Assembly: GCA_001772865.1 (NCBI GenBank)
Contig: MEVD01000003.1
Span: forward strand, 62,812-126,811
Direction: 5' to 3'
Length of the DNA stretch: 64,000 nt
Source: a candidate division WWE3 bacterium RIFCSPHIGHO2_02_FULL_38_14
Lineage (GTDB): Bacteria > Patescibacteriota > WWE3 > UBA101185 > UBA10185
Shown: positions 12,197 through 49,212 of the stretch, one piece after another
Position numbering within the stretch: position 1 is the stretch's first letter
Layout of the letters: each line of letters opens with the position of its first letter
Made by a program: the position numbers and the translations under genes
The notes under the pieces: generated by a model
Databases searched by the model: none
Seen by the model: only the letters and a program-made list of their open reading frames with translations
What the model was told of the DNA's origin: nothing

Positions 12197-12213
12197 GTTG
12201 AAGAGTGAACTTT

Positions 12214-12246
12214 GGATGCCCTCAATAACATGAGGGCATCTTGATT
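12214..12246 (+). terminator. stem-loop / weak terminator between tuf and rpsJ
   Basis: Perfect hairpin gatgccctc-aataacat-gagggcatc followed by ttgatt. The T-tract is poor, so this may be a partial terminator or attenuator. Confidence 0.4.
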
Positions 12247-12253
12247 AATAGTT

Positions 12254-12577
12254 ATGGCAAAGTCACAGAGCAAAGAGTCAAAAATCAGAATAAAGCTTAA
12301 ATCTTATGACAGCAGAATCATGGATTTAAGCTGCACAAAAATTGTTGATACAGCTATAAGAACCGGTGCAAAAGTTGTAGGGCCGGTACCTTTGCCTACA
12401 AAAATAGAGAAGTTTACAGTTATTAGAGGACCGCATATTGACAAAAGGTCGAGGGAGCAATTTGAGCTTAGAACTCACAAAAGAGTGTTGGATATTTTAA
12501 ATCCTACCGGTTCTACGATAGAAAGTCTTTCTCATTTAAGCTTACCGGCAGGTGTAGATATCTCTATAAAGATGTAA
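12254..12577 (+). CDS. rpsJ: 30S ribosomal protein S10
   Basis: 107 aa. RIKLKSYD ... GPVPLPT ... [18 protein letters not shown] are S10 hallmarks. Confidence 0.95.
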
Positions 12578-12820
12578 AAGCTTGCTCACCGCCAAGGCGG
12601 TTGCGCTTCCTTTTGCATTTTCTCTATACAAAAATGTGATGATTTCATCATCCGTACGCTTTCGCGAACTAGAAGCGTATAATACAGTTTTCATTTTCGC
12701 TACGCGAAAAAGTGACGTAACTGGGTAGATTGGTTTTTAGGCGTTTTATTGATAAAATGGGCAAGATGCATAACAGCAGAAGTTAAAAAAGCAAAAAGGG
12801 CACTTTACTATTGACGTTAA

Positions 12821-12841
12821 GGCGCCCCGGCGCCTTTTTTT
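12821..12841 (+). terminator. intrinsic terminator inside the rpsJ-rplC spacer
   Basis: GGCGCC-CCG-GCGCC GC-rich hairpin immediately followed by TTTTTTT. Confidence 0.6.
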
Positions 12842-12872
12842 ATTGATTGAATTAGAGAAATTATGAGGAACT

Positions 12873-13301
12873 ATGGAACAAATTATAAAAGGAATAAAAC
12901 AGAATATGTCACAGATTTTTCTCGAAAGCGGAAATGTAATTCCTGTCACTATTATTAAAACCGAATCGGATATTTCCGAAGATTTGTTAAATAAATCAGT
13001 AGTTCTTACAGGCAAGTCTAAAGGAAAAGGATTTGCAGGAGTAATGAAGAGATGGAATTTTGCAGGTGTCGGTGAGGCTACTAGAGGCCAGTCGAATAAA
13101 CAAAGATCGGGCGGATCAATAGGCAGTCAGACACCGGGAAGAGTGTTAAAAGGGAAAAAAATGGCAGGTAGGCTTGGAAATAAAAAAGTTACTGTAAAAG
13201 GTTTGAGAATAGTGGAAATTGCAATAGATAAAAAGGAATTAAAAGTTTCTGGACCGGTGCCTGGGGCTAGAAATTCCACAATATTTTTAAGGATATTATG
13301 A
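12873..13301 (+). CDS. rplC: 50S ribosomal protein L3 (unusually short, 142 aa)
   Basis: N-terminal region (SQIFLESGNVIPVTIIK) and C-terminal core (GKGFAGVMKRWNF, GSIGSQTPGRVLKGKKMAGRLG) match L3. About 60-70 central residues of typical L3 are absent. TGA stop overlaps the rplD ATG. Confidence 0.85.
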   Translation: MEQIIKGIKQNMSQIFLESGNVIPVTIIKTESDISEDLLNKSVVLTGKSKGKGFAGVMKRWNFAGVGEATRGQSNKQRSGGSIGSQTPGRVLKGKKMAGRLGNKKVTVKGLRIVEIAIDKKELKVSGPVPGARNSTIFLRIL

Positions 13302-48328: not shown

Positions 48329-49040
48329 AATAATAGTTAAATAAAATTGAAGCCAGATCTTTTGATGACCGCCAAGTATCAATTATGGTAGAAACAGTAC
48401 TTCCTTCTATATGATACCAGCTCACTGGCAGCTCTTTGATTGAAAAGCCCAGTTTTTTTGCAAGAAATAATGTTTCAGAATCATATGCGAACCTGTTTAT
48501 TCTTTGTTTTTCAAAAACTGATTTAGCGGCGTTTGCTTTAAACCCTTTGAAGCCGCAAGTTATATCGGTAAAGTTTAATCCAAGAAAAATATTAGTAATA
48601 AGTGTATACCCTTTACCCAGAATCCTTCGCGGTGCATTTTGGCTTTTTTTTGTTTGAGTTAAAAAATGTTTTTTTGAACCAATAACTATATCATATTCGT
48701 CTAATTCCTTAATAAATTTATGCATTTCTGCTAAATCTATAGAAATATCAGCATCCATTACAATAATTTTCCCTCCCTTGCTGGCAAGAACGCCTAATTT
48801 TACCGCGTGTCCTTTACCCTGATTTTGTGAATAACTTACGATTTGAATTGGAATGTCGGAATACTGATTTTTCAAATCTTCGAGTAAATTAATAGTGTTG
48901 TCTGTAGATCCGTCATTAGCCAATACCAACTCAAACGGGTCTTTTAACTCTTTTAACATGTAGTCGATGGCTGTGGTCATCCTGCTTTCGGATTTCATTC
49001 TTTTTTCTTCGTTATAAAATGGTATTACTACGCTTAGCAT
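48300..49040 (-). CDS. family 2 glycosyltransferase (polyprenyl-phosphate sugar synthase-like)
   Basis: 246 aa. LSVVIPFYNEE, LVLANDGSTDNT, VMDADIS. Confidence 0.8.
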   Translation of the reverse strand: MLSVVIPFYNEEKRMKSESRMTTAIDYMLKELKDPFELVLANDGSTDNTINLLEDLKNQYSDIPIQIVSYSQNQGKGHAVKLGVLASKGGKIIVMDADISIDLAEMHKFIKELDEYDIVIGSKKHFLTQTKKSQNAPRRILGKGYTLITNIFLGLNFTDITCGFKGFKANAAKSVFEKQRINRFAYDSETLFLAKKLGFSIKELPVSWYHIEGSTVSTIIDTWRSSKDLASILFNYYYGNYNKKAK

Positions 49041-49212
49041 ATCAAACCGTTTAAATTGTTAACGTAAAATAGTATATCACGCGCAAATGGGGTTTTTTAT
49101 TATTCTTTTTGGATGAATTAATCGAATAACCTTATAGTACTGTTTACATGTTATTTATATTAATTCAAAATATGATAATTCTACAGAGTAGACACCTCGA
49201 AAGGAGAGGAAG

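Follow-up and report, generated by a model that had tools for sequence, protein, structure and literature searches.

A candidate terminator/antiterminator leader with a conserved mini-ORF upstream of rplC in WWE3 and Microgenomates bacteria

Ribosomal protein (r-protein) operons are textbook examples of autogenous control, in which free r-proteins act on rRNA-like leaders, and these leaders are mostly restricted to single phyla. To our knowledge, no r-protein leader has been described for the Candidate Phyla Radiation (CPR), and almost nothing is known of gene regulation in these bacteria. Here we consider the region immediately upstream of rplC (encoding L3) in 64,000 nucleotides (nt) of a candidate division WWE3 bacterium, RIFCSPHIGHO2_02_FULL_38_14 (GCA_001772865.1, contig MEVD01000003.1, positions 62,812 to 126,811); this whole stretch is called the window, its coordinates are used throughout, and all features discussed lie on its plus strand. 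Among described systems, the S10 leader of Escherichia coli, studied by Zengel and Lindahl, lies 5′ of rpsJ, has five hairpins (HA-HE, HG) and is found only in Gammaproteobacteria; it acts through L4 and a NusA-stabilized pause, and neither an antiterminator nor a leader open reading frame (ORF) is described for it (PMC3616713). The infC-rpmI-rplT leader of Bacillus subtilis is about 200 nt long, with an rRNA-mimicking L20 site, long-range pairing, and no leader ORF (PMC1865079). Mycobacterial leaderless upstream ORFs encode polycysteine and respond to cysteine on cysteine-metabolism operons (bioRxiv 10.1101/834739), and among the 20 r-leader candidates of Eckert and Weinberg, an rplC-associated motif occurs only in Archaeoglobi (PMC7247131). 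Full-text literature searches found neither a CPR rplC leader nor leader-peptide control of an r-protein operon, and the rplC leader element of WWE3 and Microgenomates is apparently undescribed.

The spacer between rpsJ and rplC is 295 nt long, as a first-pass annotation of the sequence had stated (rpsJ runs to 12577, and rplC begins at 12873), and that annotation had read the layout as a regulatory leader or attenuator. This reading is now well supported by a conserved terminator, a predicted promoter upstream of it, and a covarying antiterminator, and it seems very probable that the spacer contains a regulated terminator/antiterminator leader. That its 3′ ~140 nt form a ribosome-mediated (leader-ORF) transcription attenuator of the rplC-led S10 operon is a more specific proposal, on which we consider the case evenly balanced. 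We compared about 55 non-redundant leaders taken from genomes of WWE3 and Microgenomates, both within the CPR; rplC loci came from species-representative genomes and metagenomes, and closer relatives were added through L3 homologues. Comparison with homologous spacers, which the first-pass annotation had proposed as a check, showed that the 3′ ~140 nt are conserved and that both helices covary there, but the 5′ half has no counterpart; the conserved portion of the spacer is confined to that 3′ part. Taken as a whole, the earlier interpretation is partly supported by these sequence comparisons.

The predicted terminator is a hairpin at 12819-12836 (AAGGCGC-cccg-GCGCCTT), identified by its fold, by the rarity of its pattern, and by covariation. 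It runs into a T7 tract (12835-12841) whose first two T residues pair with AA at the base of the stem. The first-pass annotation had placed a strong GC hairpin and T7 about 30 nt before rplC, and both are indeed there, 31 nt from the gene. This is the best terminator-like site between 8 and 26 kb of the window, and a single occurrence of GCGCC-N2-8-GGCGC in all 64 kb compares with an expectation of 0.02. The folding energy in the window is -10.4 to -10.9 kcal/mol. A GC-rich stem-loop is thus followed by a U-run on the transcribed strand, as in intrinsic terminators, and termination at this site is predicted. In most WWE3 spacers, GCGCC(C)-loop-(G)GGCGC precedes a U-run, and from there it is mostly 11-36 nt to the rplC ATG. 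The same hairpin stands 5′ of rplC at about 20 loci of the Microgenomates/Woesebacteria type, where one pair alternates between C-G and U-A (GGYGCC...GGCRCC). Twenty leaders of the Microgenomates type were aligned with MAFFT, blind to structure; the stem was 96.4% paired, with 15 double-change cells, which none of 500 shuffles reached; the CG-to-UA exchange is present in 8 of the 20 sequences. G-U wobbles in the stem (L097, L098, L045, L150, and L022) favor an RNA structure over a DNA palindrome. The core of the rplC-leader stem is unchanged in 24-26 of 27 sequences; as a control, the terminator-like hairpins of the tuf-rpsJ spacers in these genomes have a completely different sequence in each genome. 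The terminator was the only consensus hairpin seen in the leader alignments.

A second helix would compete with this one. The loop and the apical 5′ arm of the hairpin are complementary to a purine-rich motif 5-20 nt upstream. In the window, a fold of 12793-12830, together with the family-wide tests below, defines an antiterminator in which the 5′ strand GGGC-a-CUUUAC (12798-12808) would pair with G-u-UAAGG-c-GCCC (12816-12827), a strand overlapping the 5′ arm and loop of the terminator. Its predicted energy is -10.1 kcal/mol, about equal to the terminator in stability. Loop and upstream motif change together across the family. Most loci have CCCTT in the loop and AAGGG upstream, and the corresponding pairs elsewhere are CCCAA and TTGGG (L089), CCCAGA and TCTGGG (L105 and L107), CCTAA and TTAGG (L019), CGCTTC and GAAGCG (L100), GCCATCC and GGATaGGC (L018), CCTCTT and AAGAGG (L010), and CCACTT and AAGaTGG (L092). 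In 32 non-identical WWE3 leaders, the loop-upstream duplex had a mean energy of -7.0 kcal/mol with a leader's own partner, against -5.3 kcal/mol with swapped partners (0 of 10000 permutations). We also folded 35 upstream nt with the 5′ arm and loop, omitting the 3′ arm, in 49 leaders. Of about 10.5 arm-plus-loop nt, 7.6 were sequestered, compared with 4.6 when the upstream sequence was shuffled (p = 4e-12), and the mean antiterminator energy was -9.3 kcal/mol, compared with -6.3 for the shuffles and -10.5 for the terminator. These permutation and shuffle tests used unaligned sequences; in MAFFT alignments that covered the sequence 5′ of the hairpin (A3 and A4), the pairing strand was misaligned because linker length varies. 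The near-invariance of the stem core, next to a loop that covaries freely, can be understood because one strand must fit two partners.

We considered whether the loop-upstream pairing could be an H-type pseudoknot and rejected this; between 2 and 9 nt of the 5′ arm are taken up by the pairing, and many loops measure just 3 nt, so the two helices are mutually exclusive. Such a mutually exclusive helix with compensatory changes is found in both groups, strongly in WWE3 and more weakly in Microgenomates. In Microgenomates, a 5′ GGAGGUG is 90% complementary to the CCUCY of the terminator arm and loop, raising the possibility of Shine-Dalgarno and anti-Shine-Dalgarno mimicry. This long-range pairing, and a 5′ hairpin (P1) also considered in Microgenomates, showed no covariation beyond conservation.

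The candidate promoter lies upstream of both helices. An extended -10 element, TGATAAAAT (TGaTAAAAT), is predicted at 12751-12759, and a -35-like TTGGTT (12731-12736), read from the sequence, stands 17 nt 5′ of the -10 hexamer. In the alignment of seven diverged WWE3 leaders, TTGnTAnAAT is invariant, and the start and stop columns of a downstream mini-ORF are conserved too. Microgenomates leaders have TTGATATAAT at the equivalent position, with a TTGCnn -35 at the same spacing. The extended -10 is located 54-65 nt 5′ of the hairpin, so that predicted promoter, terminator, and start codon follow one another as expected of an attenuator.

The mini-ORF of the window, ATG CAT AAC AGC AGA AGT TAA (12766-12786), has six codons and would encode MHNSRS. 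Across the family, the start codon falls 7-10 nt past the -10 element; in the window, the A of the ATG is the 7th nt, and the transcript is therefore predicted to be leaderless or nearly so. Of 29 WWE3 leaders, 25 contain an ATG-initiated ORF that is 5-10 codons long and stops 19-36 nt short of the hairpin. Dinucleotide shuffles gave 3.1 +/- 1.7 such ORFs (maximum 9) per 29 leaders, and the reverse strand gave 2. A length of exactly six codons occurs in 12 WWE3 leaders, compared with 0.6 in shuffles. In Microgenomates, 19 of 20 leaders carry an ORF beginning (A/G)TG GAG GTG..., mostly 6-7 codons long, with its stop 21-36 nt 5′ of the hairpin. The stop of the window mini-ORF lies about 30 nt 5′ of the hairpin and 11 nt from the antiterminator strand; the median of the latter distance is 12 nt, about the reach of a ribosome. 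The peptides are varied (MHNSRS in the window; elsewhere MINKRT, MINFRT, MIRITT, MIDQDT, MQFLLT, and MEVV..), and no regulatory codon run common to them was found in WWE3 or Microgenomates.

Six further WWE3 loci were fetched after the expectations had been fixed. All six have the hairpin and U-run, 11-47 nt 5′ of rplC, and all six have an upstream strand complementary to arm and loop, including the new loop variants CGAG/CUUG and UGU/CAGG. A mini-ORF is likewise present in 6 of 6; it is 5-9 codons long, and 27-34 nt separate its stop from the hairpin. At L020/L111 and L104, the extended -10 is kept (TGGTACAAT and TGGTAGAAT), ATA replaces ATG, and the GC terminator is absent; here, start codon and terminator appear to have been lost together.

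Several details of the mini-ORF are recorded here as observations in their own right. An extra ATG overlapping the -10 element (TAAAATG, TACAATG, or TAGAATG) is present in the window (12757-12786) and in L087, L173, and L176; it is in frame, 9 nt before the mini-ORF start, and would give a 9-codon version if transcription began further upstream. In both WWE3 and Microgenomates, the mini-ORF very often ends in ACA TAA (Thr-stop), frequently after AGA or AGG (Arg), for example in L013, L093, L095, L168, L126, L150, L165, L171, and L176; this ending might mark a special context for termination, or else an RNA motif. Two candidate features were discarded. In one WWE3 subclade, TGATAAAT is not a -10 element, being the beginning of a mini-ORF that starts ATG ATA AAT. 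A start codon 3′ of GGAGG-like motifs, or an ORF crossing the terminator, is not conserved.

The order of promoter, 5′-terminal mini-ORF, antiterminator strand, terminator, U-run, and rplC is the anatomy of a ribosome-mediated attenuator. We imagine that transcription would begin at about 12766, from the extended -10 at 12751-12759, and that the first codons of the transcript would be those of the mini-ORF. About 11 nt past the stop, the purine-rich strand at 12798-12808 would pair with 12816-12827, the 5′ arm and loop of the terminator. This helix would be transcribed first and would exclude the terminator (12819-12836 with U7, about -10.5 kcal/mol); since the antiterminator is made before the 3′ arm and is of similar stability, naked RNA should favor readthrough. 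With no ribosome at the mini-ORF stop, then, the antiterminator would form and RNA polymerase would continue into rplC. A ribosome at the stop would abut or cover the 5′ strand of the antiterminator, the terminator would form, and transcription would halt about 30 nt 5′ of rplC. The predicted outcome is that transcription of the r-protein operon falls when translating ribosomes are plentiful and rises when they are scarce or slow, a negative feedback on the operon for L3, L4, L23, L2, S19, L22, S3, and further proteins. One can envision, as a tentative proposal to which we give somewhat less than even credence, that the S10 operon of WWE3 and Microgenomates is under a translation-capacity sensor in which ribosomes read a leaderless 6-7-codon mini-ORF without delay, and their arrival in time at its stop codon picks the helix.

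Several observations weigh against this model. Depending on the leader, between 0 and 21 nt separate the stop codon from the antiterminator strand, and direct masking by a terminating ribosome cannot fit all members. The WWE3 peptide sequence is not conserved, and the ATG...ACA-TAA pattern could be an RNA or DNA motif and not a sign of translation. One WWE3 subclade lacks a clear promoter, and its mini-ORF would follow a 5′ untranslated region of ~15-22 nt without a Shine-Dalgarno sequence. For Microgenomates alone, the antiterminator covariation is weak (permutation p ~0.05; 47 of 500 shuffles). The sequences compared are phylogenetically related, and the p-values overstate their independence. 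The element is absent from some WWE3 genomes (L007, L096, and L099) and is therefore not essential. Lastly, the conserved promoter, the geometry of the mini-ORF, the terminator, and the covarying alternative pairing come from sequence comparison; where transcripts start and end, and that the mini-ORF is translated, are predictions, and we infer these, together with the direction of the switch and the identity of its sensor, from the arrangement of those parts.

The sensor is where the strongest alternative enters. The same switch could respond to an r-protein encoded in the operon (L4, L3, or another) that promotes termination, leaving the mini-ORF incidental or auxiliary. There is precedent in r-protein-controlled attenuators (PMC3616713 and PMC1865079), and the variable distance from stop to antiterminator fits an r-protein better than it fits steric masking by a ribosome. 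The GCGCC...GGCGC core is unusually conserved, and in the rimP leader a conserved stem was read as the signature of protein contact (PMC2965389). On the other hand, apart from what the two competing helices account for, no conserved unpaired motif, internal loop, or obvious rRNA-like module was noticed in the leader, and an r-protein sensor would leave unexplained the conserved start, stop, and length of the mini-ORF. Nor is there a match to an r-protein leader in Rfam. The first-pass annotation had suggested such a scan, and no family matched; with Rfam 15, using gathering-score and E-value thresholds (E <= 10), nothing above the level of chance was obtained for the window, the spacer, or 20 related loci. 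We regard an r-protein sensor as unlikely, yet as an explanation to be kept seriously in mind. A resemblance to the UUCG hairpins of 16S rRNA was noted and judged uninformative for rRNA mimicry.

It is improbable, in our view, that the hairpin is simply an unregulated, leaky intrinsic terminator that ends the str/tuf/rpsJ transcripts and sets a fixed ratio of upstream to downstream expression, the upstream complementarity having no switching role. The hairpin is strong, rpsJ follows tuf as in arrangements linked to the str operon, and other CPR lineages have unrelated hairpin-plus-U-run elements 5′ of rplC, all of which would suit such a terminator. However, a conserved promoter lies upstream of the terminator, and the U-run is often just 11-20 nt from the rplC ATG, leaving no room for a promoter downstream. 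In three of four Woesebacteria-type loci that were read through (L031, L036, and L060), another ORF, not rpsJ, lies directly 5′ of the element, which therefore belongs to rplC. The covariation of loop and upstream strand, and an alternative helix about as stable as the terminator, would also be unexpected for a simple terminator, and the ordinary tuf-rpsJ terminators of the same genomes drift freely.

Slightly more doubtful still is that the unit is an independent small gene, its ~76-nt transcript acting as a small RNA in trans or encoding a functional hexapeptide, with readthrough into rplC being incidental. It is a complete promoter-to-terminator unit, and Sinorhizobium offers examples of small RNAs and leader peptides that derive from attenuators and function in trans (PMC6614838 and PMC7298713); a terminated leader transcript of ~76 nt would exist both under the attenuator reading and under that of an embedded small RNA, which the first-pass annotation had also offered. 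Yet the unit always lies immediately 5′ of rplC and on the same strand, the WWE3 peptide varies, the conserved features are exactly those of a cis-acting switch, and the 64-kb window holds no second copy. Finally, a metabolite riboswitch (for example, for a nucleotide alarmone) or a repressor-bound DNA operator (GGCGCC-N-GGCGCC) seems very remote: promoter, ~60 nt of RNA, terminator, and start codon make a riboswitch-like layout, but there is no conserved multi-helix aptamer core, the short segment from mini-ORF to hairpin varies everywhere but in the pairing strand, and Rfam gave no match; GGCGCC is a perfect DNA palindrome, but the G-U wobbles and the strictly one-sided U-run point to RNA.

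The leader-ORF attenuator that we favor is confined to the 3′ part of the spacer. Upstream of it, 12578-12730 is, on the present comparison, lineage-specific filler. The first-pass annotation had described the whole 295 nt as structured, and this did not hold: relative to shuffles, the fold z-score was -1.56 for the entire spacer and -1.37 for 12578-12750. We rejected a single structured RNA spanning the spacer, since z lies between -1.4 and -2.0 for both strands and relatives lack the 5′ half. The four palindromes that had been listed all exist (12589-12600, 12638-12652, 12655-12679, and 12694-12710), although not in the conserved part. A TATAAT box exists as well, but at 12678-12683 and not at about 12690, and it too is lineage specific. 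No counterpart of this 5′ half was found in any related locus examined, and no copy elsewhere in the window. The closest relatives with a complete spacer, L168 and L169 (L3 73-74% identical; spacers of 127 and 193 nt), match the window only in the 3′ part of the spacer. Possibly the small hairpin at 12589-12600 acts as a weak terminator of rpsJ. The 5′ half shows no similarity to the TlyA-like gene found between rpsJ and the leader in Woesebacteria, of which it might have been a remnant, and a search for repeats or a mobile element within the spacer gave only weak 17-nt direct repeats.

The window is 36% GC, with tightly packed genes in the order rpoB-rpoC-rpsL-rpsG-fusA-tuf-rpsJ, followed by the S10/spc/alpha r-protein genes. 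The rpsJ gene (12254-12577; S10, identified by ORF and Pfam S10 match) lies directly after tuf and therefore belongs with the str/tuf genes. The gap between it and rplC is the longest in the str/S10/spc block, where the remaining gaps are mostly -14 to +20 nt. The S10 operon of the WWE3 lineage starts at rplC (12873-13301), the first gene of the presumed regulated operon, which encodes a short, 142-amino-acid L3 and is preceded by a Shine-Dalgarno-like GAGGA (12865-12869) read from the sequence; GGAG, AGGA, and GAGG are overrepresented 5′ of the genes of the window. In the 331 nt compared across the spacer, and in the S10 and L3 proteins, the window is identical to a contig of WWE3 bacterium RIFCSPHIGHO2_12_FULL_38_15 (GCA_001772885.1). 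Across WWE3-type genomes (short L3 of ~142 amino acids), the rpsJ-rplC spacer is 48-263 nt long. Non-CPR loci in the same sets have a gap of a few to ~60 nt and no such hairpin.

A number of other features of these loci deserve mention. The tuf-rpsJ spacer has a GC hairpin of its own at 12213-12245 (GGATGCCCTC-aataacat-GAGGGCATC), 10-25 nt 5′ of rpsJ, so that rpsJ is flanked by two terminator-like elements; most WWE3 relatives have a hairpin there with a wholly different stem sequence and a weak T-rich tail. Compared with the Woesebacteria protein (225 amino acids), the WWE3 L3 of ~142 amino acids lacks ~70 internal residues, roughly residues 30-100, and short-L3 clusters of the WWE3 kind number in the hundreds in public data. 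In L036, a 182-amino-acid ORF (1552-2100), by eye only a TlyA/FtsJ-type rRNA methyltransferase, lies between rpsJ and the leader; in L031 and L060, alignable coding sequence, seen in part, ends directly 5′ of the leader. In L007, the closest locus by S10 among the species-representative genomes (90%), the spacer is 48 nt long (2453-2500) and has no hairpin, but it retains ATGATAG..., similar to the beginning of the mini-ORF, which suggests that the leader was deleted secondarily. At 48658-49212, the window has 555 nt without an ORF of at least 50 amino acids and without an Rfam or tRNA match, despite tight packing elsewhere; no tRNA or tmRNA genes were found in the window.

Other CPR-like lineages (L077, L085, L124, L166, L039, L051, L068, L112, and L156) have an unrelated hairpin and U-run just 5′ of rplC, and in several of these an upstream strand is complementary to the 5′ arm. 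Attenuation 5′ of rplC may be wider in the CPR than the WWE3/Microgenomates family. Five metagenome-assembled contigs (L031, L027, L039, L051, and L068) are labeled "uncultured Gammaproteobacteria/Pseudomonadales" or "Saccharibacteria"; these labels look wrong because the contigs bear a Microgenomates-type leader or a WWE3-type short L3.

The element probably tunes r-protein production. If the leader-ORF attenuator is correct, transcription of the S10 operon would be coupled to the activity of the ribosome itself, with feedback that does not come from a free r-protein, and this would be the first r-protein operon under such an attenuator. At ~75 nt, the element would moreover be an RNA switch both compact and well defined, conserved in at least two large CPR lineages. 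The element supplies a consensus for the promoter (TTGnTAnAAT, followed after 7-10 nt by a start codon), which we take as evidence for leaderless-type initiation in these CPR bacteria. It serves as a marker of the operon boundary, with rpsJ detached from the S10 operon. The whole can be rebuilt in vitro as a testable system, which is valuable as the hosts cannot be cultured.

How does this leader stand beside those already described? The first-pass annotation had likened it to the action of L4 on the E. coli S10 leader, and what survives of that analogy is a functional likeness; position, architecture, and the Rfam model all fail. In both, a terminator hairpin lies about 30 nt 5′ of the first start codon, and S10-operon genes (rplC, rplD, rplW, rplB, etc.) follow. 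Unlike the E. coli leader, the WWE3 element is found 3′ of rpsJ and 5′ of rplC, spans ~75 nt between start site and U-run, and includes a mini-ORF together with a covarying antiterminator; the two share no sequence or covariance-model similarity. A choice between antiterminator and terminator that controls an r-protein operon is something it has in common with the infC-rpmI-rplT leader and with Firmicute r-protein leaders that use terminators. The rimP leader resembles it in having a terminator stem with an unusually conserved GC motif (GGGc...gCCC there; GCGCC...GGCGC in WWE3) ahead of an operon for the expression machinery, but that leader is on rimP-nusA-infB, NusA has been proposed as its partner, and its description includes neither a mini-ORF nor a loop-covarying antiterminator (PMC2965389). 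The mycobacterial upstream ORFs are likewise leaderless first-cistron ORFs whose translation controls a downstream operon; unlike the WWE3 element, they are not described with such an intrinsic-terminator switch (bioRxiv 10.1101/834739).

The remaining comparison is with the leader-peptide attenuators of trp, his, leu, thr, ilv, and pheA. The WWE3 element differs from them in lacking regulatory codon runs, in a peptide of 6-7 residues that is not conserved, in an ORF that is apparently leaderless, and in a target that is r-proteins and not enzymes of amino acid biosynthesis. It also has no 1:2 anti-antiterminator, and its predicted default without translation is therefore readthrough and not superattenuation. 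What it has in common with these attenuators is a short 5′ ORF, mutually exclusive antiterminator and terminator helices, and a U-run, and for both, the position of the leading ribosome relative to a stop codon is proposed to select the fold.

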